64,000 bases of DNA, taken from the NCBI RefSeq assembly GCF_044324875.1, contig NZ_CP172185.1; one strand, written 5' to 3'. Made by a program: the position numbers and the translations under genes. This DNA comes from Escherichia coli. GTDB taxonomy: Bacteria > Pseudomonadota > Gammaproteobacteria > Enterobacterales > Enterobacteriaceae. Of the stretch, positions 16,400-50,826 are shown piece after piece (the stretch's first letter is position 1; the number at the start of each line of letters is the position of its first letter). The notes below the pieces were generated by a model. That model ran no database searches and was not told the origin of the DNA. It saw nothing but the letters and a program-made list of their open reading frames with translations.

Positions 16400-17184
16400 T
16401 CCAGTCTACCGTACAGAATCAGTTGTTCCAGAATAGCCTGCTGTGTTGTTTTCCGCTCTCTGGTCAGTCTGTCCAGAGCGCTTTTTGCGGATGGCGATAT
16501 CTTTACGTTGATTTGTACCCGTTTATCTTTTTTTCCATCGATAAACTGTTTTCTGAATGCATTGTGCATCTTGTCGAAAAATCTTTCTTTTGCAGCGAAT
16601 CCTAGGTGAAATTCTTTTGGCGTCAGTAAACAGGGTGTGTCTGTGGGGAATAACATTTTTAGTAAAACTACAATGGCAATATATCTTTCGTTATCATTTA
16701 CAGGATTAAACCAGGAAAGATATGTGGGTGAGATACGTGCATCAATATATTCCCATGCCCATTTCAGTTGTTCGGTATTCTTTTTAAGCCATTTGGCTTC
16801 GTTTCTCTTTTCGAGTCCCAGCCAGTTTTGATGCATTATTGAGATAATCCGATCTGCTTCCCCATAAAGGATTAACGCATTAATCCATTTCCCTATAACA
16901 TTCAGTCGTGTTTCATGACTTGAAGGAATAATTGTCATGGGGTTATCCTTCATAACGATCACCCCCTTCAAGGCAGAGTTGAACTCAGATTCATTATTAA
17001 GTTTAAGTTTTTCGGGAACTGTATGAGACATAATTAACCAGAACCAGAATGCTGCAATTTCATTTTTTCTGATCCATTCAGGTATGTGATTATCTGCCAG
17101 ATTATTATCATTCAATAAATGCTCAGTTGTTTTATTTTTCCAGTCATATCTATTCACGTTATAACCGCCTTTATATTGTTTCAT
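16396..17184 (-). CDS. Hypothetical protein with C-terminal ribbon-helix-helix-like segment (about 262 aa)
   Basis: Start taken at MKQYKGGYN (RBS gaggcg upstream); C-terminus VQINVKISPSAKSALDRLTRERKTTQQAILEQLILYG looks like beta-strand plus two helices of RHH/CopG type; 3' end overlaps the convergent gene by 4 nt. Confidence 0.5.
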   Translation of the reverse strand: MKQYKGGYNVNRYDWKNKTTEHLLNDNNLADNHIPEWIRKNEIAAFWFWLIMSHTVPEKLKLNNESEFNSALKGVIVMKDNPMTIIPSSHETRLNVIGKWINALILYGEADRIISIMHQNWLGLEKRNEAKWLKKNTEQLKWAWEYIDARISPTYLSWFNPVNDNERYIAIVVLLKMLFPTDTPCLLTPKEFHLGFAAKERFFDKMHNAFRKQFIDGKKDKRVQINVKISPSAKSALDRLTRERKTTQQAILEQLILYGRLD

Positions 17185-17299
17185 CTGATTACGCCTCAAT
17201 CGTTTTCTTTTCTGGTGATTTTCACCATCACATGTCAGTTGTATATGCAAGGGGATCAATAAAAATATCACCCTGCAAGCACTTCAAAGCTGATTATGG

Positions 17300-18880
17300 G
17301 GATATTCTAGAACTATTCACAAAACTATTCCAGACATATCAAGAACTATTTCTTGACCTATTCATAATAAAATAAAACATGCTATCAACTACGGCTCATA
17401 TTCTCCTTGGGGGTGTCGTTGTACTGTTCGACTGTTCTTGTGGTCAGATTAACAATCTGAAGAGTAAAAGCGACAGTAATCTGTCTGTTATAGTGGCGAT
17501 AAAAACACTGAATGCGCATCCTGTATGTGAAATCCTGTCATGTAGAGCAGTAAGCAATGACAGACATGCATGTTATATGTGAAGGGGGCCGGGAGACGAC
17601 ATAATCAGTATGGCTGTCATTCTGGTTGTAAAACGCGATCACTTTCCGGGGGTAAAAGATGATATGGAGGTTGACAAACGGTTTGCTTCGGATTGTCTTT
17701 TCTGGGGCCTGAAATACGAGGGCAGAAAAATAATTCCAGAGTAAATCTGCTCTGTTTTTAGGACAGAAAACTCCATGCTGGCTGTAAAAGTGAAAAATTA
17801 ACACCCAGTATGTATGGAAGTCTGAAGATGTTGAGAATGTCGGTATGATACTATATACACATATTTTACTAAGTATTTTTACTAAGCATTTCAGTAAGTG
17901 TTATACACGTATTTTCTACTAAGTGTTTTACCAGACATACACGTGTTTTCATAAACAGCCCTATAAGTGTTTTCATTAAGCATTGCTGTACACATTGCTT
18001 TGTCTGAAACACATCCAGTTTAGTAAATCTTTACGTTAGCTAAAATCAGTTTAAAGCTGCTGTAAAACCTTTCTGTTTAAGCAATCAATCTGCTATTCGA
18101 TTTTACTGATGTTGCGTTTAACCTTTTCTGAGATTTCGAGTTTCGACGTTAGCATGAGAAAAGTATCTTTACGCTAAATCAACCCGAACTTTCCTGAAGT
18201 AATCTGACGTTTTTTTCGATGTGCTTACGACGATTCTGTTAAACGACTTTCTGGATGTTTTGATAACAATCAGATTGAGGCATTAACGATTCCTGACGTT
18301 TTCTTTTCCGTGTAAGGTCATTCTTTTTGTCATGAGGTTTCTTCTTGCATTGCGAAAGTGTGATGAACGGTTTTGGTGTTTTTGATTCAGATAAGGTTTA
18401 CGTTATCGATGGTTAATCGTTTTTATGGTGCGTAGTGAAACGTAACTTTTTCAGGATGAGAAAATCGATTCTGATGTTGGTGATTTTTGTTCTTGTGGCG
18501 GGGTTTATCTGTAAACAGGTTTTAAACGTGTCATTCACATCCGTGATTGAGTTGTGTGATTAAGCTGTAGGTTTTGGGGTTGTTGTTGATTTGCATTACC
18601 AGGAAGCGTTCTGGTTGCGTTTCTGGTGTTTTGTTCGAATGTTCTGTGGATCCTTTTCCCTTCTGACTTTTCTCGTTGTCCATGTCGTTTTTAAATCCAT
18701 TCGCTGTTCTTGAGTGTTTTTACCCTGCGTGTAGAATTATCTTTTCGTTCCGGGATGGTTTGTTCCGTTTCAATCACTCTTAATCAGAGAGTTGTAGCAT
18801 TGCTCAATGCCGGATGCCGTAAAGTTTTACCGCGGTGATTAATGATGTGAAGTCAATCCAAATCAACGGAGATCTCTCAT
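17300..18880. other. 1.6-kb AT-rich, ORF-poor region with short direct repeats upstream of the Gp2-family genes
   Basis: Repeated motifs tactaagt(a/g)tttt and acacgt(g/a)ttttc around 17870-17950; only short ORFs; strongly T-skewed plus strand. Confidence 0.5.
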
Positions 18881-38288: not shown

Positions 38289-39410
38289 TTACCCTTCGAA
38301 GAACCAATACCCGCTATTGACCAGCGCCGCGAGCATCGCGAGGAATGACGGATCTTCCAGCGCATCGCCAAAATTCTCCGCAGTCAGCGCAATGTTGCTG
38401 GCGAGTGCATCCAGTGCCGGACGGTGCGGGGAATCGATCTTCTCACCATTGGCATACACGTCGTCGCCAATGCGCAATACGCGCAGACCACCCAGACGCA
38501 CCAGCACTTCACCTTGTTTCAGCGCATCGTAGATTTCATCCGGCTGATAAGGCGGCTCTGGCGGCGCGATATCCAGTTCATGGCGTGACTGGGATATAAA
38601 CTCCCCAAACCATTGCTTAAAGTGTTCCGGCTGGTTGATCAATTCGAGCATCATCTCACGCAGTTTATCCATCTCTTGCGGCAGAACATCCGCAGGATGA
38701 GCGCGAGGTGAAACATCAGGATCGCTGTAGTAGTTGCCGCCCAGTTCACGTTGCAGCACATAATCGGCAAATCCGCTAATCAGTTCCCGCGTATTTGGTG
38801 CGCGAAAACCGACGGAATAGTTCATCGCATTTTCCAGCGCGTAGCCTTCATGGGGGAATCCTGGCGGAATATAAAGAATATCGCCTGGCTCCAGTTCTTC
38901 ATCAATGATGGCTTCGAACGGATCAACCTGTAACAGATCCGGGTGCGGGCAGTGCTGTTTCATTTGCAGCTTTTCGCCCACTCGCCAGCGACGACGTCCG
39001 GTACCCTGAATGATAAACACGTCGTACTGATCGAGATGCGGGCCGACGCCGCCGCCAGGTACAGAAAAAGAGATCATCAGATCATCAATACGCCAGTCCG
39101 GTAGTTCACGGAACGGTCGCATCAGCGCGGCGGTCGGCTCATGCCAGTGGTTCACTGCCTGCACTAACAATGACCAGTTAGTTTCACCGAGATGATCGTA
39201 GCTTTCGAACGGGCCGTGGCTGACCTGCCATTTGCCATCCTGGTGGCTGACCAGTCGACTGTCGACTTCGCTTTCCATCGCCAGACCCGCCAACTCGTCT
39301 GGAGAGATCGGGTCAATAAAATTATTAAAGCCGCGTTTTAACACCACCGGACGTTTCTGCCAGTGACGTTCAAGAAAATCGGGCCAGTTAAGAGTGAGTT
39401 GGTATTCCAT
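38289..39410 (-). CDS. roxA: Ribosomal oxygenase RoxA (YcfD), JmjC/cupin family
   Basis: 373 aa from MEYQLTLNWPDFLERHW; synteny with pepT. Confidence 0.9.
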   Translation of the reverse strand: MEYQLTLNWPDFLERHWQKRPVVLKRGFNNFIDPISPDELAGLAMESEVDSRLVSHQDGKWQVSHGPFESYDHLGETNWSLLVQAVNHWHEPTAALMRPFRELPDWRIDDLMISFSVPGGGVGPHLDQYDVFIIQGTGRRRWRVGEKLQMKQHCPHPDLLQVDPFEAIIDEELEPGDILYIPPGFPHEGYALENAMNYSVGFRAPNTRELISGFADYVLQRELGGNYYSDPDVSPRAHPADVLPQEMDKLREMMLELINQPEHFKQWFGEFISQSRHELDIAPPEPPYQPDEIYDALKQGEVLVRLGGLRVLRIGDDVYANGEKIDSPHRPALDALASNIALTAENFGDALEDPSFLAMLAALVNSGYWFFEG

Positions 39411-39611
39411 GTTAAGCATCCACAGGCTGGTATCTGCAACCGATTATAACGGATGCTTAACGTAATGCGTGAAGTATGGGCATACTTTATCAATTAGTGT
39501 TTTTTGCCGTTTCATAATGTTTCAGGTTGTGCATTATGTTTTTGATTATAAACAAATTTGTGATTTTTCTTGTTCCAGCTTGTTTCACGTTGTAGCCCTT
39601 TGTGCAACGAT

Positions 39612-39637
39612 CGGTGTAGTTAATGGTGTAGTTAATT
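39612..39637 (+). repeat. attL core: 26-bp direct repeat cggtgtagttaatggtgtagttaatt
   Basis: Identical copy at 50721-50746; itself contains an internal tandem gtgtagttaat duplication. Confidence 0.8.
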
Positions 39638-40888
39638 GTGATGACCGGATTCAAAATTATGAGCAGAGCACTTAACAAGCTGAGCGATACACAGCTAAGG
39701 AAAATCAACGGCACACCCGCCCAAAAAACAGCCTTTCTTAATGACGGTGGAAACTTGAGCGTCAGGCATTCAACCAGCGGCCTTTTAACCTGGTATTTCA
39801 CTTACAGGGCCGGAACGGGAAGGGGGGCATCACCGGAACGCATTAAGCTGGGAAATTATCCTGATCTGAGCCTGAAATCAGCCAGGGAAAAAGCCGCCCA
39901 GTGTCGCGCATGGCTGGCTGAGGGGAAAAATCCACGTCATGAGATGAATTACACCGTACAGGAAGCGTTAAAGCCTGTAACGGTTGGCGATGCGCTCACC
40001 TACTGGCTTGAGTCGTACGCAAAGGAAAACCGTGTGGATTATGACCCACTGAAAAAGCGGCTAAATAATCACGTAATACAGCACATTGGCCCTATGCCGC
40101 TGGATAAATGCGAGCTACGGCACTGGCTGGCCTGTTTTGATCGGGTGGCAAAGCAAGCCCCTGTTTCCGCCGGGTTCCTGCTACAGACATGCAAACAGGC
40201 GCTTAAGTTCTGCCGGAAGCGGCGCTATGCAATCAGCAACGTTCTTGATGATATGAGTGTGGCTGACGTTGGGAAAAAACCGGATATAGGCGAACGTGTC
40301 TTAAGTACCAAAGAACTGGGCGAATTATTGCAGGCACTGGACAAAAAAATATTTTCCCCTTACTACGTCGCACTAATCCGCCTCCTGATTGTTTTCGGAT
40401 GCCGGACAGTAGAACTGAGGTTATCGGAGATCGGCGAGTGGGATTTTACCGAAATGCTCTGGACCGTTCCGAAGGAGCACAGCAAAACGAAGGTAGCCAT
40501 ATTCCGGCCCATACCGGAAGCGATACTGCCGTTCGTCACGCAGCTGATGGAGCAGAACAGGCACACGGGCTTATTGCTGGGGGAAGTGAAACAGGAAACC
40601 AGCGTGTCGCAGTACGGCAGATTAGTGCACAGGAGGCTTAAACACCCTCACTGGTCACTGCATGACATCCGGCGCACCTTTACAACGATGCTGAACGATT
40701 TAGGCGTGGATCCTCACGTCGTGGAGCAGCTTACAGGCCACCAGATGCCAGGAATGCAGCGAGTTTATAATCATTCCCGTTATCTGGATGCGAAACGCAA
40801 TGCGCTGGATATGTGGACGGAGCGGTTAGGGATACTGGCGGGAGCACATGAAAACGTAACCACGCTACCAGTAACCAGAAGAAAATAA
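39638..40888 (+). CDS. int: Tyrosine-type site-specific integrase (P4-like family)
   Basis: C-terminal catalytic signature (…HDIRRTFTTML…GHQMPGMQRVYNHSRYLD…); true start possibly at MSRALNKLS (39659). Confidence 0.85.
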   Translation: MMTGFKIMSRALNKLSDTQLRKINGTPAQKTAFLNDGGNLSVRHSTSGLLTWYFTYRAGTGRGASPERIKLGNYPDLSLKSAREKAAQCRAWLAEGKNPRHEMNYTVQEALKPVTVGDALTYWLESYAKENRVDYDPLKKRLNNHVIQHIGPMPLDKCELRHWLACFDRVAKQAPVSAGFLLQTCKQALKFCRKRRYAISNVLDDMSVADVGKKPDIGERVLSTKELGELLQALDKKIFSPYYVALIRLLIVFGCRTVELRLSEIGEWDFTEMLWTVPKEHSKTKVAIFRPIPEAILPFVTQLMEQNRHTGLLLGEVKQETSVSQYGRLVHRRLKHPHWSLHDIRRTFTTMLNDLGVDPHVVEQLTGHQMPGMQRVYNHSRYLDAKRNALDMWTERLGILAGAHENVTTLPVTRRK

Positions 40889-40937
40889 TTTTTTTCGTGT
40901 TTTTTCAGTATGCGCATACTGGATAAGTGCACAGATA

Positions 40938-40969
40938 CAACGTGAAACAATAAGCAACAACGTGAAACA
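40938..40969 (+). repeat. Two direct copies of CAACGTGAAACA (candidate integrase arm-type or regulator binding sites)
   Basis: Copies at 40938-40949 and 40958-40969; inverted copies tgtttcacgttg at 39581-39592 (near attL) and tgttccacgttg at 50690-50701 (near attR). Confidence 0.5.
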
Positions 40970-41262
40970 ACCACGAACAAGAGGTCAAAAAGTATACAGA
41001 TTTATAAGTTGCTGATTTTTAATGCTCAACTGGTTTTTTATACATTAGCGAATAACGCTTTAAATAGTGAGAAAAAAGTCATAAAACGAGATTTTATGCC
41101 TTTGCATAATACTGAATTAAAATGATTTTTATTAAAATCACCCCGTTTCTGTAAAATACCCGCCACCAACATTTGCCAACTCTGAATCACCCTGACACAA
41201 TCAGACACATCCCAACGCAATAGAACACGAAATAACTCTTTAAGAAACGAAAGGGGGCAATA

Positions 41263-41451
41263 GTGTTAAGCACTGATCGGTTTATACGTGAAAAAGAATG
41301 CGAAAAGCTAACAGGCCTTAGCCGCTCATGCCGCTACCGCCTGGAAAAGGCCGGACAATTCCCATCACGGCGTAAGCTGGGCGGTCGTTCCGTTGGCTGG
41401 TCTTTATCCGAAGTTCTGGCATGGAAGGAAAGCTGCGAGGCAGTTCACTAA
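41263..41451 (+). CDS. AlpA/Xis-like small DNA-binding protein
   Basis: 62 aa; ...KECEKLTGLSRSCRYRLEKAGQFPSRRKLGGRSVGWSLSEVLAWK matches AlpA-type wHTH. Confidence 0.7.
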   Translation: MLSTDRFIREKECEKLTGLSRSCRYRLEKAGQFPSRRKLGGRSVGWSLSEVLAWKESCEAVH

Positions 41452-41777
41452 AAAGACTGGCGGCACACAGCCGCCACCCATCCACTAATACAGAGATTTA
41501 ACCATGAAGACTGGATATACGCCCGAACAGGGGCGGGGCTTCGTTCGGCCTGGTGAAACTGAAAAACAACAAAATCGCGGTTTTTCAGGCATAAAAAAAG
41601 CGGCCCCGATAAGGAGCCGCCTTTCTGAACAATTAACCTACAGCGCAAAAAATGAATCTGAGCAGTGGGATTATATCAACCGTGCAACGAAGCGCCACAA
41701 TTGCCGGATAACGGGCAAAGAAAAGGCCACCTGTCACGGTGGCCAATGTGATCAGTGTGGTGGCTTGCTGGTGGCTA

Positions 41778-41969
41778 TCAACCTTTGGGTTCTATACCGC
41801 GCCGCTTTAGTTCAGCGCGCCCCAACTCTTTAAGCCAGTTGGCTAGGCTTATGCCGTCGCTCTGCGCTTCTTTGTCGAATTGCTCTTTTAGCTCTGGAGA
41901 AATTCGCATTCTGAATTGTGGGGATTGCCCATCACCCTTAGGGCTTTTATCACGTTTGATTGTTGACAA
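41778..41969 (-). CDS. Arc/MetJ-type ribbon-helix-helix DNA-binding protein (candidate island repressor)
   Basis: 63 aa; FRMRISPELKEQFDKEAQSDGISLANWLKELG; transcribed divergently from the replication operon. Confidence 0.55.
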   Translation of the reverse strand: MSTIKRDKSPKGDGQSPQFRMRISPELKEQFDKEAQSDGISLANWLKELGRAELKRRGIEPKG

Positions 41970-42103
41970 GTGGTCACCTATTAAATTAGCCTTTCTATTG
42001 TTAGGTGGTCACCTTAACACGGGGACACTTAAAAAAGCAAAGCCCGAAGGCGCTAGGAACACCAACGGGCTTCTAACCACAAACCGTTATGAGAGGTAGT
42101 TTT

Positions 42104-42301
42104 ATGGCTGTAAGACAGCATACCCCACGACTAGCGCACACACAAACCGCCTTTGTGTGGCGTTTTCTGGCACTGAGTGCCGGAGAATCTCAAATCATCC
42201 ACGTAACCGCCTGGACGGAACGCGAAGCGCGTAGCCGTTGCCCGTCCGGTTGTGTTGCTGTATTCGCCGCCCGTATTCGTCAGGGGGTGTACCATGATTA
42301 A
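42104..42301 (+). CDS. Small hypothetical protein, first gene of rightward operon
   Basis: 65 aa from ATG 42104 with RBS gagagg; unknown family. Confidence 0.45.
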   Translation: MAVRQHTPRLAHTQTAFVWRFLALSAGESQIIHVTAWTEREARSRCPSGCVAVFAARIRQGVYHD

Positions 42302-42662
42302 CCTGTCACTTACCGATCTTAACCGCGTTCAGTTTCGTGAGAAATTTACCGGACAGCTACTCGTCAATGTGGAGAACGGGCGCATAGTGCGTAATTATCA
42401 CCTGCCGGATGGTGCAATTGCCGGAAGCGTTGAAGCATTGCTGGAACTGGCGGAACGTGCGCGACTGATTAAGCCGTCAACGAGCCATCACGATGATGAT
42501 CTGCATTTTACCGGATGTATGGTGAGTCACTACGAAAACGGCGTCGAGGTATCCTGCGAACGGCTGCGTGATGATTGCTGTTTCGGCACACTGCCGGAAT
42601 TTATCGAATTGCTGACCAGTTGCGGATATCAGGTTATTCAGGGGGTGCGCCATGTGCAATAA
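42294..42662 (+). CDS. Hypothetical protein (122 aa)
   Basis: Start MINLSLTDL overlaps upstream gene end; unknown family. Confidence 0.5.
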   Translation: MINLSLTDLNRVQFREKFTGQLLVNVENGRIVRNYHLPDGAIAGSVEALLELAERARLIKPSTSHHDDDLHFTGCMVSHYENGVEVSCERLRDDCCFGTLPEFIELLTSCGYQVIQGVRHVQ

Positions 42663-43107
42663 CATCCGTCCGGACGCAGCAGGCGAAGCCATCATAACGC
42701 TAATGCACGCGCTGATTGATATTTCATGCACGGCAGCAACCGCAGAAAAACACATTACCAGAGAGCCGGAATATACAGGGGCAATAATCCCGCATTCGCT
42801 GGCCTACGCACAGCTAACCGCTGATATGGCGCTGAATGAGGCTAAAGCCATCCTGATTGCTGATTGTGAAAATGGGGGGGGGGTTATGCGTGATGATCGT
42901 TTTAATTCCCTGAAACAGGAATTTTCCGGCGTTCCTGATAATGCGGCTGATGCGCTTTCGTCAATATCTGAAATTATGCGGGTGGCTTTTTTCTTTCTTT
43001 GCACTGATGAGCACAGGGATACAGGGCTAAATATTCTTGATATCGCCGCTAATTATGCTGATTTCGTAACGGAAACTGTTTTAAGAAAAACGACGGACGG
43101 GGATTAA
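42652..43107 (+). CDS. Hypothetical protein (151 aa)
   Basis: Overlapping start with previous gene; unknown family. Confidence 0.5.
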   Translation: MCNNIRPDAAGEAIITLMHALIDISCTAATAEKHITREPEYTGAIIPHSLAYAQLTADMALNEAKAILIADCENGGGVMRDDRFNSLKQEFSGVPDNAADALSSISEIMRVAFFFLCTDEHRDTGLNILDIAANYADFVTETVLRKTTDGD

Positions 43108-43108
43108 T

Positions 43109-43342
43109 ATGCGTGATATTTACCACGAAACAATAGACCGCGCATTTCTTGCACTTTCTCACAGTGAAAATATGTTGGAAATATTGCGCATATGTCTTGA
43201 AACGCTTGGAGATAATGAACGTGATAAACAGAAATCAATGATTGTCACGGCATTAATAACGCTTCTTGAGCCTGTAATAAATGAGTTGCAGGAAATAGAG
43301 ACATTACACGACCAGTATAAAGCGCCCCACACCGGAGAATAA
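43109..43342 (+). CDS. Hypothetical protein (77 aa)
   Basis: Tightly packed in operon; unknown family. Confidence 0.45.
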   Translation: MRDIYHETIDRAFLALSHSENMLEILRICLETLGDNERDKQKSMIVTALITLLEPVINELQEIETLHDQYKAPHTGE

Positions 43343-43347
43343 AAAAC

Positions 43348-43635
43348 ATGAAAAATAAAAATTCTGGCGTTAATGCCAGCGGCCCCGCTCGTCCTGAAAT
43401 CCGTCCCGGCGATATTTTCCGTGATAACTACGGCGGCACGGTAATGATTAAGGGCGTGGAAGAACGGCGCGTAACCTACCGCCGTGATGGCTACGAATAT
43501 GACTGCGTTATGCCTGTTTATCAGTTCCGGCGTGATTTCACGCTGGTGGGCCATCGTAAAGCCGTTAATCAGAAACGTGCTGCAAGTTATATCCGCAAAA
43601 TCCGTGAAATGCTGGTCGCAGGGGGTAAGAAATGA
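43348..43635 (+). CDS. Hypothetical basic protein (95 aa)
   Basis: Overlaps helicase gene start (ATGA); unknown family. Confidence 0.45.
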   Translation: MKNKNSGVNASGPARPEIRPGDIFRDNYGGTVMIKGVEERRVTYRRDGYEYDCVMPVYQFRRDFTLVGHRKAVNQKRAASYIRKIREMLVAGGKK

Positions 43636-45038
43636 AACTTGCACCGAACGTAAAACTGTTACCGAAAGATAAACACACTGAGGCGGTTATTTTTGCGGGT
43701 GATAATGCTCACTCCTTTGCAGAACATTACATGATTGCACAGGCCAAAAAAGCAGGCGATCCCATCCCTCCGGTTTACCTGGGCCGTTATCAGTTAAGCG
43801 AACTGGACAACTTACAGATTGTTGATGAAGGACGATACAGGGCAAAGGTCATACGCGCCGGAAACCTGGACGATATGCAGATGCTGACCATTGCCACAAA
43901 ACTGGCGATCGCCGGAGTCCAGGAGGCGCGCCTACTTTCTGAAAATTTCGAACTGCTGGAGGACTGGAGCGACCAGCTACCACGACTACGGGAAACATGG
44001 GAGAGAGGGGAAAGCCTGGTCATGAATGGCGGAAAGCGAAAAATCACACTTCCCATCTCATGGGGTTCTGAGGGATTCGATGCGCAGCAAAGCTACGTCA
44101 TTAAGGGGCTTATTCCGGCTGAGTCATTATGCAGCACCTACGGGGCCAGCGGTTCTTATAAATCGTTCCTCGCCATTTCCTGGTCGTGCCATGTTGCCAC
44201 AGGTATGGCATGGGGAGGCCGCAGGGTAAGTAAGGGTGCGGTTATCTATATCGCTGGCGAAGGCAGCATGGGCGTAAAACGCCGCGTTAAGGCGTGGGAG
44301 ATAACCCACGACAAGGTGGTTACAGATTTGTGCATCATTAACGCGCCTGTTTTCCCTGCATCGCCTGACTATGTGGAGCAGGTTATCAGGACTGCCGGAC
44401 TTGTTAAGAGCAGAACGGGCGAAAATGTGCGGCTGATTGTGATCGACACGCTGGCCCGTTGCTTTGGTGGGAATGATGAAAATGATTCCCGTGATATGGG
44501 CGCATTTATCCAGGGGTGTGACGCGATAAAGCAGGCCACAGGGGCCACGGTGCTGGTGGTTCACCATTCCGGCAAGGATGAAACAAAGGGGGCGCGTGGT
44601 TCCAGTGCATTCCGTGCCGCGCTTGATGCAGAGTACCGAATCAGCCGCGAAAATTCAGACGTTACAGCACTGGTCGCAGCATGTACGAAGATGAAGGACG
44701 CAGAGGAGCCAAAAGAGAGCGCATACGACCTTAAAAGCGTGGAGGTGTTCACCGATACAGATGGCGAAGAAATTGTGTCCATGGTGGTGATTGACGTTCC
44801 CCGCGCCCCTGCTGAACTGGAGCGCATCGAGGAGGCAGGCAACAAGACGGAAAACCATACCGCGCTATGGGGGTGCATCCGTTCACGCACACAGAACGGC
44901 GACAAGTGCACGATCCCGCTGTTACGTGATGACATGAAACGGCTTGGGTATGACGTGAAAAATATGCGGCGATGGTTAGCCAAACTGGAAAAAGACGCCG
45001 TGATTTACATTGATGGTGATGATGTAGGACCACTGTAA
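43632..45038 (+). CDS. Replication protein, RecA-fold P-loop ATPase/helicase (RepA/DnaB-like, satellite pri-rep position)
   Basis: 468 aa; P-loop-like YGASGSYKS, Walker-B-like LIVIDTL, followed immediately by iteron cluster. Confidence 0.7.
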   Translation: MKLAPNVKLLPKDKHTEAVIFAGDNAHSFAEHYMIAQAKKAGDPIPPVYLGRYQLSELDNLQIVDEGRYRAKVIRAGNLDDMQMLTIATKLAIAGVQEARLLSENFELLEDWSDQLPRLRETWERGESLVMNGGKRKITLPISWGSEGFDAQQSYVIKGLIPAESLCSTYGASGSYKSFLAISWSCHVATGMAWGGRRVSKGAVIYIAGEGSMGVKRRVKAWEITHDKVVTDLCIINAPVFPASPDYVEQVIRTAGLVKSRTGENVRLIVIDTLARCFGGNDENDSRDMGAFIQGCDAIKQATGATVLVVHHSGKDETKGARGSSAFRAALDAEYRISRENSDVTALVAACTKMKDAEEPKESAYDLKSVEVFTDTDGEEIVSMVVIDVPRAPAELERIEEAGNKTENHTALWGCIRSRTQNGDKCTIPLLRDDMKRLGYDVKNMRRWLAKLEKDAVIYIDGDDVGPL

Positions 45039-45238
45039 AAAGTGAGTAGTAAAAGTGAGTAATGGTGAGGTTTTTACAAAATATTAACACAATTACTCAC
45101 TTTCTCACCTGTATACATGCTCAAAAGTGAGCAGTGAAAAAACACTTATGAAACATGCACATATAAAACACAAAAATCTCAAGTGAGACGAAGTGAGACG
45201 CTTTAAAAAGTGAGTAGTAAAAGTGAGAGATGGTGAGC
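45037..45238 (+). repeat. Iteron cluster, putative island replication origin
   Basis: Multiple aaaagtgag / ggtgag repeats in both orientations around an AT-rich spacer (tttttacaaaatattaacacaatta), directly downstream of helicase gene. Confidence 0.65.
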
Positions 45239-45239
45239 A

Positions 45240-45608
45240 ATGAATAAAAACCGAACAGCAGGACAAAATACCGAAGGTAAATTTATGAACACTGAAATTG
45301 AAACACTGAGCATATCAACTGCCCTTCCTGGCTGGTGGGCTAAGTTCAAAGACGACGACGGCACGGAATGGTATAGCCCAATTGCTGCATGGGCGCTTTG
45401 TGATATCCACCATTTCGGCACCGGAGATACTTACCGCGAAATCTTACCCGTGCTGACCAGTGAGCTGGGCATGAGTCCGCATAGTCCTGATGAGGGAATG
45501 TGCGAGTGCCTTTATCTGCCGGATAAGAAGTTTGTTCACTGTGGTGAATCGATGGTATTTGCCTGGTATCCGGTTAACGACAGCAGCAATAGCGGTACTC
45601 TGGAGTAA
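45240..45608 (+). CDS. Hypothetical protein (122 aa; alternative start at 45285)
   Basis: ORF after ori; unknown family. Confidence 0.45.
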   Translation: MNKNRTAGQNTEGKFMNTEIETLSISTALPGWWAKFKDDDGTEWYSPIAAWALCDIHHFGTGDTYREILPVLTSELGMSPHSPDEGMCECLYLPDKKFVHCGESMVFAWYPVNDSSNSGTLE

Positions 45609-45611
45609 ATC

Positions 45612-45854
45612 ATGAAGGTAAACCACAAAAAGACAGATCACCGCGCCATTGACCTTACAGAGCACTGGCTGAGGGTGGCGATAAAAATCATCGACCGCAA
45701 CACGGGGGAAGGATACGCGAAAGCACATCCCGAACTGATAAGTGCATTCATGACCACAGCGGCGGCAAACTTTGCCACGCTGACAGAGCGGGATATTGCC
45801 GAAGCAGAACAGGTAACAACCATCAACGTTAAAACCAGTGAGGTGGAATCATGA
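45612..45854 (+). CDS. Hypothetical protein (80 aa)
   Basis: ORF overlapping ssb start; unknown family. Confidence 0.45.
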   Translation: MKVNHKKTDHRAIDLTEHWLRVAIKIIDRNTGEGYAKAHPELISAFMTTAAANFATLTERDIAEAEQVTTINVKTSEVES

Positions 45855-46261
45855 CAGCACAGATAGCGGCTTACGGGCGGCTGGTGGACGACCCGCAGGT
45901 AAAACAGACCAGTAAGGGTACACCGATGACGCTGGCGCGTATGGCGGTATCTTTACCATGCGGCCAGGCACAGGACGGACAGGCGACGTTATGGTTATCG
46001 GTCATCGCATTTGGCAAACAGGCCGACTTTCTGGCTAAACATCAAAAAGGCGACGTTGCCAGCGTATCCGGCACGATGCAGGTCAGCCAGTGGACCGGAC
46101 AGAACGGGGAAACGCGGCAGGGTTATCAGGTTATTGCAGACAGCGTAATCAGTGCCCGTGCGGCACGTCCTGGCGGGAACAGACGCAAAACCACAGGCAC
46201 ACAGGGTAATCAGCCACCAGCGGGAGGCGATGACCCTTACGGTGATGATATTCCGTTCTGA
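45851..46261 (+). CDS. Single-stranded DNA-binding protein (short SSB)
   Basis: 136 aa OB-fold-like with Gly/Pro-rich tail ending in acidic DDIPF, as in E. coli SSB. Confidence 0.7.
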   Translation: MTAQIAAYGRLVDDPQVKQTSKGTPMTLARMAVSLPCGQAQDGQATLWLSVIAFGKQADFLAKHQKGDVASVSGTMQVSQWTGQNGETRQGYQVIADSVISARAARPGGNRRKTTGTQGNQPPAGGDDPYGDDIPF

Positions 46262-46271
46262 GGGGGTGACG

Positions 46272-46544
46272 ATGGTACATGACCGCATAGCGGAGGAACT
46301 CGAGGCAAAAGGATTTTACCGGAGGGCGGCGGCGCGATGGGGTGAAGTTATGAGGCTGGTGAGCACTGACAAGGAGCGCGAACAGGTGGCAATGCGACGG
46401 CTGGAATGTTCCCTGAAGGCACAGAGGCCACCGGAGCCGCCGGATGATTTAGGCGCTCTGAAAAGGTCAGTTAATCGCACTGAAAAACAAATGGGGATAG
46501 CTGGTATTGGCAAAGCAATATGGCGCAACTACCCGCAGAAGTGA
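46272..46544 (+). CDS. PerC-family transcriptional regulator homologue
   Basis: 90 aa from MVHDRIAEELEAKGFYRRAAARW (RBS aggggg); resembles PerC/Pch family N-terminus as remembered. Confidence 0.55.
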   Translation: MVHDRIAEELEAKGFYRRAAARWGEVMRLVSTDKEREQVAMRRLECSLKAQRPPEPPDDLGALKRSVNRTEKQMGIAGIGKAIWRNYPQK

Positions 46545-46551
46545 GCACACA

Positions 46552-46573
46552 GCCGGAGCAATCCGGCTTTTTT
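46552..46573 (+). terminator. Rho-independent terminator after perC-like gene
   Basis: gccgga-gcaa-tccggc followed by tttttt. Confidence 0.7.
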
Positions 46574-46585
46574 ACGCCTAAAAAA

Positions 46586-46622
46586 AGCCCGATAAGGTCA
46601 AAGGGGGCTTATCGGGCTTTTG
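46586..46622. terminator. Second hairpin, possibly bidirectional terminator
   Basis: 11-bp stem agcccgataag / cttatcgggct flanked by A-run and T-run. Confidence 0.5.
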
Positions 46623-46784
46623 TAGAGGAGGTTTTTTATGGTGCACTGGCACACATGATCGGGATAATCATTTCATAATTTGCAACATAACTCAATATTG
46701 TTGCGCAAAATGCAATCATGATTATAATCAGGACTGGATGAACATCCAGTTATGATTTTTTAAGTCAAAGAGGAATTTCTGACT

Positions 46785-46991
46785 ATGGCAGAAGAGAAAA
46801 AAGGCGGGGTGACGGTCTACATAAGCCCCGACATCGTGGAGGCGCTCAAGGAACGCCACCAGCAGAATGTAAAAGCAGGCATTGCGGCAGGACTTGATCC
46901 GCTGGCGATGGTTGAGCCGTCAACAGGCTGGCAGGTGCGTACCTATTTACGTGCGGCGCTGGGTATCAATCAGGTTCACGGAGGTGAATAA
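46785..46991 (+). CDS. Small hypothetical protein preceding capsid gene
   Basis: 68 aa; stop overlaps capsid gene ATG. Confidence 0.45.
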   Translation: MAEEKKGGVTVYISPDIVEALKERHQQNVKAGIAAGLDPLAMVEPSTGWQVRTYLRAALGINQVHGGE

Positions 46992-48046
46992 TGACAGGCA
47001 AAGCAAAGGCACTTACAACTAACCAGCTTTTCGCGTACCTGAATCGCGGGGATATTTCGGAATATAAATTTAGTCCGCTGTTTACCACGCTGTTTTTCCC
47101 GAACGTGGCGACCTTCAACACCCAAAACATCATGCTGGACACCCTGGACATTGAAGAGGTTACGATGTCAGCGTTCTGTTCTCCTATGGTGGGTAGTCAG
47201 GTCCAGCGCGATAAAGGGTACGAAACCAGCACGATTAAACCAGGCTACATGAAGCCAAAGCACGAAATCGATCCAACAAAGACCATCATGCGCATGGATG
47301 GAGAAGATCCGGCACAGCTTAACGATCCAACTTACCGCCGTATGCGCCTGATTACTGGCAACATGCGCCGCCAGATAAACGCCATTAAGGCGCGCGTGGA
47401 ATGGCTGGCGGTGAATGCGGTAACGACCGGAAAAAACATCATTGAGGGCGAAGGCATAGAACGCTATGAAATCGACTGGAAAATACCGGAAAACTGCATC
47501 ATACAGCAGGCCAGTGGTAAAAAATGGTCCCAGCAGGATAAAGACATGCACGACCCAATCTATGACATCGAGCTTTATGCTGATCAGGCAGGTTGCCCCG
47601 CCAACGTCATGATTATGGGCGGTGAGGTATGGCGCACATTACGCAGCTTTAAAAAATTCCGTGAACTGTACGATCTTTCCCGTGGATCAGAATCCGCCGC
47701 CGAGCTGGCCTGTAAAAACCTGGGCGAAGTGGTGAGCTTTAAAGGCTATCTTGGTGATCTGGCCCTTATCGTCTATTCCGGCAAATACACTGACAGCGAC
47801 GGGACCGAAAAATATTTCCTTGAGCCTGATTTGCTGGTCCTGGGTAACACCAACAATAAAGGGCTGGTGGCATATGGTGCGATTATGGATCAGGAAGCGG
47901 TAAGAACGGGCGCAACGCAAAACATGTACTACCCGAAAAACTGGATTGAGGACGGCGATCCGGCGATTGAGTACGTGCAGACGCACAGCGCACCGCAGCC
48001 TGTACCGGCAGATATTCGCAAATTTGTTACCGTCAAAATTGCTTAA
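46991..48046 (+). CDS. Lambda gpE-family major capsid protein homologue
   Basis: 351 aa; collinear similarity to lambda E (KFSPLFTTLFF / KFDPLFLRLFF; PGYMKPKHEI / PGYVKPKHEV; DPTYRRMRLI / DPAYRRRRII; YYPKNWIEDGDPAIEY / RYPKNWVTTGDPAREF). Confidence 0.8.
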   Translation: MTGKAKALTTNQLFAYLNRGDISEYKFSPLFTTLFFPNVATFNTQNIMLDTLDIEEVTMSAFCSPMVGSQVQRDKGYETSTIKPGYMKPKHEIDPTKTIMRMDGEDPAQLNDPTYRRMRLITGNMRRQINAIKARVEWLAVNAVTTGKNIIEGEGIERYEIDWKIPENCIIQQASGKKWSQQDKDMHDPIYDIELYADQAGCPANVMIMGGEVWRTLRSFKKFRELYDLSRGSESAAELACKNLGEVVSFKGYLGDLALIVYSGKYTDSDGTEKYFLEPDLLVLGNTNNKGLVAYGAIMDQEAVRTGATQNMYYPKNWIEDGDPAIEYVQTHSAPQPVPADIRKFVTVKIA

Positions 48047-48057
48047 CGGGGGATTCT

Positions 48058-48393
48058 ATGGACGCTCCATACATTGAGTTATTTTCAGGCAGCCAACAGG
48101 TATCCACGACGCTGGTACATTTTGCCGCTGATGCTGGCGTTATTCAGGAATTTACCCCGCTGATGCTGGCAGACAATGGCGAGTTTAAGCCGTGGGATGG
48201 TAAGGAATCTGGCAAGGCTGTTTATCTGACCTCGTACCCTGTGGACACGTCAAAGCAGAAATCAGCACAGTGTTACAAGACGGGGATATTCAATATTGCC
48301 GCCGTTAACTGGCCTGACAGCGTCGACACCGATGCGAAAAAATGCGCCGCCTTTGCGGGTTCCGGCGTATCCGTTCAGCCGCTGGCCCGATAA
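48058..48393 (+). CDS. Lambda gpD-like head decoration protein homologue
   Basis: 111 aa; C-terminal GIFNIAAVNWPDSVDTDAKKCAAFAGSGVSV parallels lambda D [32 protein letters not shown]. Confidence 0.7.
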   Translation: MDAPYIELFSGSQQVSTTLVHFAADAGVIQEFTPLMLADNGEFKPWDGKESGKAVYLTSYPVDTSKQKSAQCYKTGIFNIAAVNWPDSVDTDAKKCAAFAGSGVSVQPLAR

Positions 48394-48467
48394 GCAGGGG
48401 GAACGATGGCACAAACCAGGGCGATGACGGCGACATCTATCGCATACTGAAAACCATCTGAGACAAG

Positions 48468-48490
48468 GCCGGAGAAATCCGGCTTTTTTT
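48468..48490 (+). terminator. Rho-independent terminator after decoration gene
   Basis: gccgga-gaaa-tccggc followed by ttttttt; near-duplicate of terminator at 46552. Confidence 0.7.
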
Positions 48491-48492
48491 GC

Positions 48493-48620
48493 GGGTCCTT
48501 TCCGGCATGTGGACCCGTTACGGGGCGTCGACCTCGCACGTTTTCGCTATTTATGAAAATTTTCCGGGAAAAAGCATGTCAGTTCTTCTTGTTATTAACA
48601 TATTGTTTTTAAAGAAATAA
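48493..48620 (+). promoter_or_regulatory. Lambda-type cos site (cosQ/cosN/cosB-like) upstream of terS
   Basis: gttacggggcgtcgacctcgcacgttttcgctatttatgaaaattttccgg closely matches remembered lambda cos (gttacggggcggcgacctcgcgggttttcgctatttatgaaaattttccgg); putative cosN gggcgtcgacct at 48523-48534. Confidence 0.75.
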
Positions 48621-48710
48621 CTATCAAGAAAGAAACGACATCATAATGATGAAAAATCTGTTTTTTTTGGCATTTCATGTCGTAACTGATTTTTGATAAG
48701 GAATTGCTGA

Positions 48711-49295
48711 ATGAATGTTAATAAAAAGAGGCTTGCCGAAATTTTTAACGTGGACCCGCGGACGATTGAACGCTGGCAGTCACAGGGGCTTCCTTGCGTC
48801 TCCAAAGGCAGTAAGGGCATTGAATCTGTATTTGATACTGCCATGGCAATTCAGTGGTATGCGCGGAGGGAAACTGATATCGAAAACGAAAAGCTCCGCA
48901 AAGAACTGGACGATTTGCGTGCGGCAGCGGAGTCAGATTTACAACCCGGCACCATTGACTATGAACGCTATCGGCTCACAAAAGCGCAGGCAGATGCGCA
49001 GGAACTTAAAAACGAGCGCGATCGCGGTGACGTGATTGATACAGAGTTTTGCATGTACGCGCTTTCAAAACTGGCGAGTCAGATTTCATCAATCATGGAC
49101 AGCCTCCCGCTTACTATGCAAAGGAGCTTCCCACAGATGACCCCCGCCATGCTGGATGGCCTGAAAAAAGAAGTTGTCAGAGCCTGTAACGCATGCACAA
49201 AACTTGATGAAAACATCCCGCGAATGCTGTCCGATTATCTGATGGAAACTACCGGAAATGTGCCTGATAAGTTTCAGCCGGATAAAGACAAGTAA
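48711..49295 (+). CDS. Terminase small subunit, lambda Nu1-like
   Basis: 194 aa; [28 protein letters not shown]...[29 protein letters not shown] parallels lambda Nu1 (MEVNKKQLADIFGASIRTIQNWQEQGMP...[29 protein letters not shown]). Confidence 0.85.
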
Positions 49296-49536
49296 CGTAG
49301 TGCACAATGACCGAAGCCAGTTTACTGACTGGCTTTCAGCGTTGCGCTGGTGGGCGTTATGCGTCAGTGATAAACGTCTCCAATATTACTGATATTCGAC
49401 ATCCCCACCTCTCCACACCAGCTCGAATATCATTTTTCTCATTAAAAACAGGACATTAAAAACTGGTCAGATGTCCCATAAAAAGCCAAATGGGACAGGT
49501 CAAAAGCTTTTTTTGCAGTAATTTTCAATAGGTTAC

Positions 49537-49935
49537 TTGATGTGGTGGTGTCCCATGAAAATTCAAAAATCAGCCGTTTTCCGCGATGCTCCCGCCCCGT
49601 GGCAGGGCACCCCACAAGGAGGACCCGCCATCACTATGGAGGACATGACCATGACCGAGACCGAAGCGCTCGGGATAATCCGCAGTATTACCGGAATCAG
49701 CCAGCAGGCTGGCGAACAGGAGGCCACGCAGCCGGACAGCGTGATCGCCGAAAATTACGTGCGTGTTGTTGCTGATGTAATGCGCCGTGATGGTATTGAG
49801 CTTAACGGCGTGGATATGCGCGACATACGAATCAGAGTACTAGAGTTGCTGGCATACCGTCGACGCGTGGCGATGTATCAGGAGAGCGCGAAAAACACTT
49901 ATCAGTGGAAGAAGCCGGAGCGGTTACGGCGGTAA
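49537..49935 (+). CDS. Hypothetical protein downstream of terS (likely shorter, start near 49651)
   Basis: ORF of 132 aa; RBS ggagg favours ATG around 49651 giving about 95 aa; unknown family. Confidence 0.4.
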   Translation: MMWWCPMKIQKSAVFRDAPAPWQGTPQGGPAITMEDMTMTETEALGIIRSITGISQQAGEQEATQPDSVIAENYVRVVADVMRRDGIELNGVDMRDIRIRVLELLAYRRRVAMYQESAKNTYQWKKPERLRR

Positions 49936-50290
49936 CTGGTTGATATTTTCGAAATTCGCCAGCGGCGAACATCGGGGAAACCAGCCTAACCAGTTGATTC
50001 TTTCGGAAACAGCCATTGGCGGAATCCGGCGCGGTAACTTGCTGATATTCCCGATAACGCAAAATTGCGCTGGCTACATCCCTCACATCTGAGGACTGAT
50101 AATGCGACATTGCGCTGGCTGGCAAAGTGCAAAATTGCACGATGGCCTAACCCATTGATTATTTCGAAAACCTGCAATGCAGGAAATCGGGGAAGTAAGC
50201 CTAAGCTATTGATTCTTTCGGAAACCTCAATTTGAGGAAGTCGGCGCGGTAACTCGCTGAACTTAAAGCAAACCTCAAAATTGAGCTGGC
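49932..50290 (+). repeat. Array of four degenerate repeats of a ttgattctttcggaaac-like motif with associated short palindromes
   Basis: Motif variants ggttgatattttcgaaat (49938-), cagttgattctttcggaaac (49991-), cattgattatttcgaaaac (50154-), ctattgattctttcggaaac (50205-); cggcgcggtaact at 50028 and 50242. Confidence 0.6.
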
Positions 50291-50720
50291 TGAATAATCA
50301 TTATGATTACGCAGATGATTAAGGAATGACCGAAGGCGGAAATTCGCCTGTGGTTGATGGGGGAGTTGCAGATCTGCAACTCGACCATGAAACTACGGAA
50401 ACTACCCGTAGTTTGGGTAGTAAGAGTAACACCCAGATTTTGGGACTTACTCGTGATACCCAAATTTGGAGTATCGGTGGCAACCATAACGACTTTCGTT
50501 ACGGTTGATGCTTTTACCCCATTGGGGGAAAGGTATTACGATAATCATAACACCTACCGAACAGGTAAAGCCCACCAGCCTGATTGACATTTAACCGGAA
50601 AAAAAGCCAGGTAGCCCCGTTATGTGGATCCCCATATCGACAGCAACGCCCCCTTAAAATTACCCGCCTTTATATTTCTTGTGCCTATTTGTTCCACGTT
50701 GTTTCATACAGTGCGCCGAA

Positions 50721-50746
50721 CGGTGTAGTTAATGGTGTAGTTAATT
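50721..50746 (+). repeat. attR core: second copy of 26-bp direct repeat
   Basis: cggtgtagttaatggtgtagttaatt identical to 39612-39637. Confidence 0.8.
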
Positions 50747-50826
50747 TGCGATTTTTGGCACTTTTGTTTGTGTATATTTTTAATTAAATCAATACATTAA
50801 CTAATATCGGTGATAAAAGGGCATAT

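Follow-up and report, generated by a model that had tools for sequence, protein, structure and literature searches.

A candidate ribbon-helix-helix repressor facing the early operon of an EcCICFT073-like phage satellite in Escherichia coli

Phage-inducible chromosomal islands (PICIs) serve as widespread gene-transfer vehicles in Enterobacteriaceae, and how those of Gram-negative bacteria are silenced is an open question. In the immI region of phage P22, the ribbon-helix-helix (RHH) repressors Mnt and Arc control ant, and their short symmetric operators overlap close face-to-face promoters. In the immI region of phage P1, which comprises the c4 RNA, icd and ant1/2, translation of icd gates the genes downstream. 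Icd and Kil proteins inhibit cell division, as established for P1 Icd and P4 Kil. In the satellite P4, translation of kil/eta is coupled to read-through (PMC10111431). Among Gram-negative PICIs, the element considered here is best compared with EcCICFT073 of E. coli CFT073, whose induction, packaging and transfer were shown to require a helper phage (PMC6092414; Fillol-Salom et al. 2018). The alpA gene of that island is turned on by helper phages; AlpA is necessary and sufficient for induction, its overexpression alone triggers replication, and it activates a reporter fusion to the gene lying downstream of alpA (PMC6092414). In the same work, transcription in Gram-negative PICIs is described as unidirectional and their global repressor as "unclear" (PMC6092414). 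Here, a stretch of 64,000 nucleotides (nt) of E. coli DNA, hereafter the window, was analysed, and its positions 41778-43635 were found to be the control and early-gene region of an EcCICFT073-like PICI. The initial annotation of this DNA had taken the element for a phage satellite, and its site and gene order bear this out.

At this locus, a minus-strand gene for a small RHH protein faces a tight rightward operon of five open reading frames (ORFs) that leads into a replicative helicase gene. This layout had been recognised at the outset, and every ORF lies where it had been placed. From sequence comparison, the region is read as the immunity and early-gene module of an EcCICFT073-type PICI under the control of the RHH protein, with a probability of about 0.7. 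The RHH protein itself is, judging by its sequence and that of its relatives, very likely a sequence-specific repressor, and such a repressor is not yet described for Gram-negative satellites.

The proposed early-operon repressor is encoded at 41778-41969 on the minus strand; it is an RHH DNA-binding protein of 63 amino acids (aa), starts with TTG and belongs to the variant designated A1. It matches PHROG 228, a family of Arc-like repressors, at 4.6e-7 and, beyond Arc at 0.2, its sole Pfam hit is the RHH domain of HicB (6.9e-4, residues 17-47). When a profile of the two protein types described below was compared with the PDB, the top matches were Arc (0.045), a CopG-family regulator (0.076) and VapB, with E-values ranging from 0.045 to 0.9. 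The elements of the RHH fold, an N-terminal beta-strand and two helices within about 45 residues, are recognisable with moderate support, and the assignment as Arc/MetJ-like in the initial annotation stands at that strength.

For comparison, 85 loci were considered, comprising 80 from IMG/VR that were retrieved with ORF1 as the query, the window and four RefSeq loci. A divergent small RHH-type gene lies upstream of the Icd-like gene in 83 of them, and at least 16 variants of this gene can be told apart. Proteins of type A, to which that of the window belongs, end in RRGIEPKG and are found with a control region of about 140 nt; those of type B are the YlcI/YnfO family (NF041551), and their control region measures about 200 nt. 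Both types align collinearly through a basic arm, a strand, a helix, a turn and a second helix.

The RHH protein is called the early-operon repressor mainly because the repeats in front of its gene change with the protein variant around a constant promoter hexamer and leader. In the window, TTGACA at 41964-41969 (plus strand), which is proposed as the -35 element of the early promoter that reads rightward, overlaps the start codon of the RHH gene. The best -10 candidate, TAGCCT, is weak and lies 18 nt downstream; relatives have better ones, for instance TTGACA-N17-TATTAT in L004. Between the proposed -35 and -10 elements stands the operator-like repeat O1 (GTGGTCACCT; 41970-41979, plus strand), which on the opposite strand is the AGGTGA Shine-Dalgarno sequence of the RHH gene. 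A second copy, O2 (GTGGTCACCT; 42005-42014, plus strand), lies 35 base pairs (bp) from O1, just past the proposed transcription start. This 10-mer occurs exactly twice in the 64 kb, both times here, against 0.11 copies expected, and none of 100 shuffles reached two.

The same arrangement recurs with other letters in the related loci. GTTGACA is invariant at the RHH start codon across all type-A loci, while the neighbouring repeats vary: in each variant, two copies of a mostly palindromic motif of 10-12 bp follow GTTGACA, with a start-to-start spacing of 30-38 bp (35 bp in most variants) that is fixed within the variant. The motif reads GTGG(T/C)CACC in type A1, that of the window, GTGTACACC in A2, TACGTACGTA in A3, ATGGTAATTACC in A4b and TGTATACC in A5. 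Type-B loci carry three copies of a GTG-N5-CA motif, again specific to each variant. By contrast, the TTGAC(A/G) hexamer and the downstream leader are constant whichever RHH variant is present. RHH proteins bind repeated or symmetric sites, usually in their own promoter region, and the variant-specific repeated (pseudo)palindromes seen here at fixed positions are predicted sites. Such variant-linked repeats constitute strong, although indirect, evidence for a repressor and its operators, and we infer that the arrangement is the signature of an immunity-type repressor-operator cassette.

The placement of these sites also bears on a different account, according to which the RHH protein would mainly target helper-phage DNA, for interference or superinfection immunity, the repeats at its own promoter would serve autoregulation only, and essentially AlpA alone would govern the operon. 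The necessity and sufficiency of AlpA for the induction of EcCICFT073 (PMC6092414) would suit this account, as would the interference of that island with lambda through unidentified genes, the fact that the RHH gene is a variable spot among otherwise near-identical islands, and a record of a Klebsiella phage that includes an RHH gene with 67% identity. Nevertheless, a repeat between the -35 and -10 elements and another just downstream form a geometry typical of repression of a rightward promoter. No further copy of the operator 10-mer occurs in the window, possible prophage DNA beyond icd included, and a similar protein appears in only 6 phage records. A role directed mainly at the helper is considered quite improbable.

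A toxin-antitoxin-like pair, in which the RHH protein would be mainly an antidote to Icd/Kil and not a repressor of the whole operon, is suggested by the names attached to this protein. Apart from the Pfam HicB match at 6.9e-4, an 80%-identical RefSeq homologue at the same position is named "HicB family antitoxin", and the Icd/Kil family does inhibit cell division. However, the protein has no parts of the HicB domain beyond the RHH segment (17-47), no HicA match was found among the scanned ORFs flanking its gene, and PADLOC gave no match, so that a HicAB type II toxin-antitoxin system was rejected. The RHH gene is moreover divergent from ORF1 and not co-transcribed with it, the variant-specific repeated sites at the promoter point to DNA recognition, and in 23 of 119 cases this promoter and leader stand before a first gene that is not Icd. 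An antidote role is thus regarded as very unlikely.

If the RHH protein is instead a repressor with its own operators, each variant would recognise only its own sites, and co-resident islands would consequently not cross-regulate each other. Two islands in one genome were seen in only two cases, L020/L023 (variants B6 and A3) and L044/L074 (B6 and B3), and in both the RHH variants differ. This fits the existence of immunity groups, two pairs being too few to conclude.

The operon that would be controlled in this way consists of five plus-strand ORFs packed into 42104-43635 and running into the helicase gene. From ORF1 to the helicase gene, successive cistrons overlap by 8 nt, overlap by 11 nt, stand 1 nt apart, stand 5 nt apart and overlap by 4 nt in ATGA. 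Since the cistrons overlap or abut, they are taken as one operon, and the junctions are so tight that no room is left for a promoter or terminator between them. By their sequences, the five ORFs are real genes and not chance frames: each matches a PHROG family (1e-28 to 1e-57), hundreds of E. coli homologues are annotated as genes, and the three ORF families that were searched have at least 72 database homologues each. The possibility raised earlier that they might prove to be pseudogenes is not borne out by these matches. The helicase gene (43632-45038, plus strand) encodes a RepA-type replicative helicase of 468 aa, which matches Pfam AAA_25 at 5.8e-42 and PHROG 2850 at 1.7e-187, together with primase/helicase families, and whose RefSeq homologue is named "helicase RepA family protein".

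In the 78 loci that could be scored up to the replication gene, the Icd-like gene always comes first (78/78), DUF4222 always directly precedes the helicase or primase, and the ORF4 family is present in 68. Between Icd and DUF4222 lie variable small ORFs, namely ORF2, ORF3a, ORF3b and families of 61, 63 and 106 aa. A changeable small-ORF zone of this kind is the "Bro" or dynamic zone of Gram-negative PICIs (PMC10111431). Comparison of the small-ORF families with hhalign gave ORF2 and ORF3a as the sole related pair; ORF3b, ORF4, the 61-, 63- and 106-aa families, Icd and DUF4222 are mutually unrelated by this method. PADLOC detected no defence-system family in 10 island ORFs, and the earlier idea that these genes sense or interfere with the helper phage gained no support.

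The first cistron, ORF1 (42104-42301, plus strand), encodes 65 aa from an ATG with a GAGAGG Shine-Dalgarno sequence; counted from the first ATG (42089) the product would be 70 aa, and RefSeq homologues measure 62-66 aa. It matches NF033153 at 5.1e-18 with 64.9 bits (cut-off 25), and P4 Kil, also 65 aa, scores 76.1 bits against the same model. By this measure, ORF1 is a homologue of the Icd/Kil host cell-division inhibitors and belongs to the same NCBIfam family as P4 Kil. In some loci, a second and longer Icd-containing protein (about 154 aa) is encoded after the first Icd gene.

ORF2 (42294-42662, plus strand) encodes an accessory protein of 122 aa that matches PHROG 340 and 2512. Its family is restricted to E. 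coli and Salmonella, includes variants with internal deletions and is missing from many relatives. Residues 32-109, the C-terminal two-thirds, are related to ORF3a (hhalign 98.9%). Its AlphaFold2 model is poor, with a predicted local distance difference test (pLDDT) score of 54, which is below the quality needed for a fold search; a duplicated beta-beta-alpha-beta unit is the most that it suggests.

ORF3 (42652-43107, plus strand; 151 aa) joins ORF3a (42652 to about 42885) in frame to ORF3b (42886-43107), the latter with an ATG of its own. PHROG 5146 is matched by the N-terminal half of ORF3 and PHROG 24341 by the C-terminal half. In most relatives the two halves are separate genes: they encode 79-86 aa and 73-79 aa in L001-L003, overlapping genes of about 79 and 73 aa are found in relatives, and L004 holds only the second, of 73 aa. 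The count of five genes given in the initial annotation is therefore right for the copy in the window and does not extend to most related loci. At the junction lies a G10 homopolymer (42874-42883, plus strand), the only run of at least eight G or C in the window. The tract is G7 in 9 related loci, G8 in 13, G9 in 8, G10 in 1 and G11 in 1, and its length varies in 6 classes of loci that have identical flanks of 66-68 nt on either side. With G8 or G11 there are two separate genes, with G7 or G10 an in-frame fusion, and with G9 the first gene gains a short tail, the ATG of ORF3b being kept at every length. The tract could be a slippage-prone contingency site, or its variation could partly be sequencing error.

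ORF4 (43109-43342, plus strand; 77 aa) matches PHROG 2196 at 7.2e-36 and has no assigned function. Its 492 homologues, from E. coli and Shigella, are all annotated as "hypothetical" and have no Pfam domain. ORF5 (43348-43635, plus strand; 95 aa), the stop codon of which overlaps the helicase start in ATGA, matches Pfam DUF4222 (PF13973) at 7e-26 over residues 16-67, and its fold is modelled as a Tudor-like small beta-barrel plus a helix. The five proteins had at first been described as without a recognisable family. This holds for ORF2, ORF3 and ORF4, for which neither Pfam nor NCBIfam gave a match and whose PHROG families are of unknown function, but not for ORF1 and ORF5. The literature consulted contained no functional study of DUF4222, Icd-like or YlcI/YnfO/RHH proteins in PICIs, or of the leader.

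Between the proposed promoter and ORF1 lies a conserved 5' leader (42033-42084, plus strand), which consists of a two-part hairpin (42040-42072) followed by the near-invariant UCUAACCA. Hairpin and UCUAACCA stand about 32-35 nt upstream of the ORF1 start in 81 of the 85 loci. Among 21 distinct leader sequences, 92% of cells are paired, against 29-51% in slid controls, and three pairs show compensatory changes (A-U to C-G; G-C to C-G). Covariation amounts to 0.208, compared with 0.057 in shuffles, none of 500 shuffles being as high. Searched with the covariance model R1, the window yields one copy (59 bits), EcCICFT073 likewise one and P4 none; the leader has no Rfam match. A wider scan gave 119 cases of the leader motif, 96 of them before an Icd-like ORF and 23 before another first gene. 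Because it also precedes these other genes, the leader is assigned to a promoter-leader unit and not to Icd. The non-Icd genes that follow it in other contigs encode Cys-rich proteins of 75-88 aa, HNH/AP2-like proteins and GIY-YIG-like proteins. In some related islands the leader motif occurs twice, some 750 nt apart, which, together with the second Icd-containing protein of some loci, suggests a tandem duplication of the promoter-leader-Icd unit (IMG/VR contigs L089, L151 and L157). A reading of UCUAACCA as similar to the boxB of phi21 or the boxA of rrn was dropped, as the surrounding sequence misfits a boxB loop.

Inside ORF1, two adjacent stable hairpins are predicted (42134-42186, plus strand); the first spans 42134-42163 and is followed by UUUUCU, and a terminator scan gave a match within it (42139-42159). 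Their minimum free energy is -28.9 kcal/mol (z -4.45), which none of 200 shuffles equalled. Of 29 sequence variants, 27 retain either the pair of hairpins or the first one next to a weakened second, the exceptions being L004 and L022. They are a possible translation-sensitive attenuator, a candidate role suggested by structure prediction and by analogy.

The conservation of these structures raises the question of whether immunity at this locus could be RNA-based, as in P4 and P1. In that case, the leader hairpin or an RNA from the alpA-RHH spacer would decide on termination or on translation of ORF1, and the RHH protein would be auxiliary or unrelated. It is known that kil or icd lies directly downstream of the CI or C4 RNA in P4 and P1 (PMC10111431), and ORF1 is a homologue of these genes; the leader hairpin is conserved with compensatory changes, and the hairpins within ORF1 resemble a terminator. 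Models of C4 and isrK have, in addition, been reported to match some Gram-negative PICIs (PMC10111431). In the window, however, a permissive Rfam scan of 39000-51000 returned nothing at E up to 1, and no relative of C4 or isrK was thus seen, so that antisense-RNA immunity of the P1/P4 type (C4, CI or isrK) was rejected for this copy. Model R1 finds its single copy and no second, complementary site, and the only short repeat between the leader and ORF1 (CACAAACCG, at 42078 and 42141) is not conserved in relatives, for which reason it was also rejected as a P4-like seqA/seqC pair. Furthermore, the leader hairpin does not vary with the RHH variant and, being constant, cannot give specificity. Immunity based on RNA is accordingly judged unlikely here.

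To the left of the RHH gene, the spacer between it and alpA (41455-41744, minus strand) contains terminator-like hairpins in the leftward direction only, at 41744-41725 and 41478-41455, and the terminator scan found no rightward terminator in it. In related loci with spacers of up to about 650 nt, rightward terminator-like sites mostly number 0 and occasionally 1, and leftward ones 0-2, so that relatives with short spacers show the same bias. An ORF of 109 aa at 41504-41833 (plus strand) runs into the 3' end of the RHH gene. It is probably no gene: it has no PHROG match, contains terminator hairpins and is annotated as a pseudogene in relatives.

Under control by the RHH protein, the switch could operate as follows. 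Dimers of the protein would bind O1 and O2 and shut the early promoter, and the Kil/Icd homologue and satellite replication would stay silent. The protein would probably curb its own synthesis as well, because O1 overlaps its ribosome-binding site. Once the promoter is released, a rightward transcript would carry the hairpin leader and then, in order, Icd/Kil, the accessory proteins, the 77-aa ORF4 product, DUF4222 and the helicase. More speculatively, induction may not require destruction of the repressor. The helper phage would switch on AlpA, and transcription driven from upstream would meet no rightward terminator, pass antisense through the RHH gene and enter the early operon, thereby both bypassing and dampening the repressor. 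Ribosomes on ORF1 might then melt the internal terminator-like hairpin, in a manner comparable to kil/eta in P4. An antirepressor encoded by the helper is as likely as AlpA-driven read-through.

Several observations weigh against this account. Homology to the RHH fold is supported by moderate E-values only (4.6e-7 to 0.045), the gene starts with TTG in the variant of the window, and its leftward promoter cannot be assigned confidently in type-A loci. A consensus promoter scan of the window did not call the early promoter, the -10 element TAGCCT being weak. The co-variation of sites and gene could come from block inheritance of a recombining cassette, although this is insufficient in that it does not explain the repetition of the sites. 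As for the hairpins in ORF1, their synonymous sites are conserved no more strongly than those elsewhere in this highly conserved gene, although the sampled genes are too similar to each other for a telling test. Every regulatory step described above is, moreover, a prediction from sequence. Finally, the published picture of Gram-negative PICIs is one of unidirectional transcription under the control of the activator AlpA (PMC6092414), and any repression by the RHH protein would have to be one that AlpA can override. The initial annotation expected a master repressor at this position, an expectation that derives from the Gram-positive Staphylococcus aureus pathogenicity islands (SaPIs), while in the present family AlpA is the known activator (PMC6092414). 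What supports the repressor is instead the co-variation of the repeats with the protein variant.

A broader version of this proposal is held only tentatively. In it, RHH and YlcI/YnfO proteins would be the missing master repressors of Gram-negative PICIs and of capsid-forming PICIs (cf-PICIs), would keep the Kil-replication operon off and, with at least 16 immunity specificities, would determine which islands coexist. Helpers would neutralise the repressor either directly, through an antirepressor, or via antisense read-through from AlpA, and the leader would be a new regulatory RNA of the switch.

The region is, in itself, an ordinary genomic feature that carries a specific, testable regulatory hypothesis. 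For the question of how Gram-negative PICIs are silenced, the comparison supplies a candidate repressor, two exact predicted sites in the window and natural specificity variants. It also corrects the annotation, in that the operon opens with a Kil/Icd homologue, the helicase is coupled to a Tudor-like protein of the DUF4222 family, and a poly-G tract fuses or separates two genes. Should the RHH protein not regulate the operon, the region would be an ordinary variant of a known island.

The island as a whole is bordered by a direct repeat of 26 bp (CGGTGTAGTTAATGGTGTAGTTAATT) at the attachment site, with a left copy at 39612-39637 and a right copy of the same sequence at 50721-50746; it is the longest exact repeat common to both borders and is internally built from a tandem GGTGTAGTTAAT unit. 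The repeats enclose 11.1 kb, with roxA on the left and phoQ on the right. E. coli pepT and roxA (99.6% identity) flank one side and phoQ/phoP the other. The island carries int, alpA, the RHH gene, the Icd-like gene, DUF4222, the helicase, SSB, a PerC-like gene, and genes for a lambda-type capsid, a decoration protein and a small-terminase (TerS)-like protein. The tyrosine integrase (39638-40888, plus strand) matches PHROG 1 at 3.4e-73, and its RefSeq homologues are annotated as tyrosine-type recombinase/integrase. The AlpA/Vis-family regulator-excisionase (41263-41451, plus strand; 62 aa) matches PHROG 2790 at 1.3e-17 and is 94-98% identical to AlpA of related PICIs.

The features expected of a PICI are present: at the left end, int and alpA share one orientation and face inward, the attachment site is flanked by repeats and is the same roxA-phoQ site as that of EcCICFT073, and the 11.1 kb, within the usual size of about 10-15 kb, include an AAA_25 helicase and an SSB of their own. 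The late ORFs that were compared with PHROGs match only major head, head decoration, small-terminase or unknown-function families, and none for tail or lysis. The late region (46991-49935) encodes a lambda gpE-like capsid protein, a gpD-like decoration protein, a small-terminase-like protein and another protein, of unknown function, that matches PHROG 1561. Between 46991 and 50700, only capsid, decoration and TerS-like ORFs were found, and no portal, protease, large terminase or connectors. A cf-PICI was therefore rejected, since the complete head module is not present. In EcCICFT073, deletion of the capsid or decoration homologue gave no phenotype (PMC6092414). Because it shares the roxA-phoQ site and the gene order, the island is, on sequence grounds, an allelic relative of EcCICFT073 and a member of a known satellite family. 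The module is matched in 1,663 out of 5,426 complete genomes of E. coli, the best coverage being at most 86% of the 2.5-kb module, and by this comparison the early module is a mosaic.

Elsewhere in the window, icd (57641-58891) opens a segment, 57641-64000, in which the gene is followed by DNA of lower GC content (0.42-0.47) with several short minus-strand ORFs. The 3' end of icd is a classic prophage integration site, and the DNA beyond it may be a prophage or a prophage remnant. A 2-kb stretch of low GC content at 16001-18000 (0.378, against a window average of about 0.49) is possibly another horizontally acquired segment.

Set beside the systems introduced above, the locus combines traits of several. 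The left operon of P4 (vis, CI RNA, kil/eta, epsilon, orf151, orf106, alpha) likewise has an AlpA/Vis homologue upstream (47% identity between AlpA of the window and P4 Vis; E 1.8e-15) and begins, among its translated early genes, with a 65-aa member of the Kil/Icd family, which is followed by small proteins and then by the replication helicase. In contrast to P4, there is no CI/C4 RNA here, and the gene for a putative protein repressor on the opposite strand takes that place. Also, the island lacks homologues of epsilon, orf151, orf106, alpha, sid, delta and psu, and its late genes are of lambda type (gpE/gpD/Nu1-like), not P2-directed. A P4-like satellite was rejected because BLASTP and TBLASTN of all ORFs against P4 gave Vis only, Kil being related by family profile; by the same searches, the 151-aa length that ORF3 shares with P4 orf151 is coincidental, and their equation was rejected. 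With the immI region of P1, the locus shares an Icd-family ORF as the leading cistron, but it has no c4 RNA, and the downstream genes are unrelated.

The Stl/Str pair of SaPIs and Gram-positive PICIs occupies the same map position, between integration and replication genes, is likewise a divergent pair over a rightward operon, and shows allelic diversity tied to specificity (PMC6092414). Nevertheless, Stl is a larger helix-turn-helix protein that is co-oriented with int and inactivated by a helper-phage protein, whereas the protein described here is of the RHH type and 63 aa long, int and alpA run rightward, and activation by AlpA is the inducing step known. A master repressor of the SaPI Stl type was rejected, as the RHH protein has no helix-turn-helix and its gene is oriented opposite to int. 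In the immI region of P22, as with the proposed repressor gene here, a small RHH gene is divergent from an operon whose products are harmful if unregulated, and Arc is the best match in the PDB, although this similarity is one of fold class only (E 0.045). There is one putative repressor gene here and two in P22, and the operon carries replication genes in place of an antirepressor.

EcCICFT073 differs from the island of the window in its RHH gene, which is of type B (YlcI/YnfO) with a 200-nt control region of three sites, compared with type A1 here, in its replication protein, which is of the primase family and 584 aa long, compared with the RepA-type helicase of 468 aa, and in its accessory ORFs, four small ones in EcCICFT073. 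In other respects the two islands correspond. They occupy the same roxA-phoQ site, carry the same leader motif, and share the gene order int, alpA, a minus-strand RHH-type gene, an Icd-like gene, small ORFs, DUF4222, a replication protein, SSB, PerC, capsid (c1499) and decoration protein (c1500).

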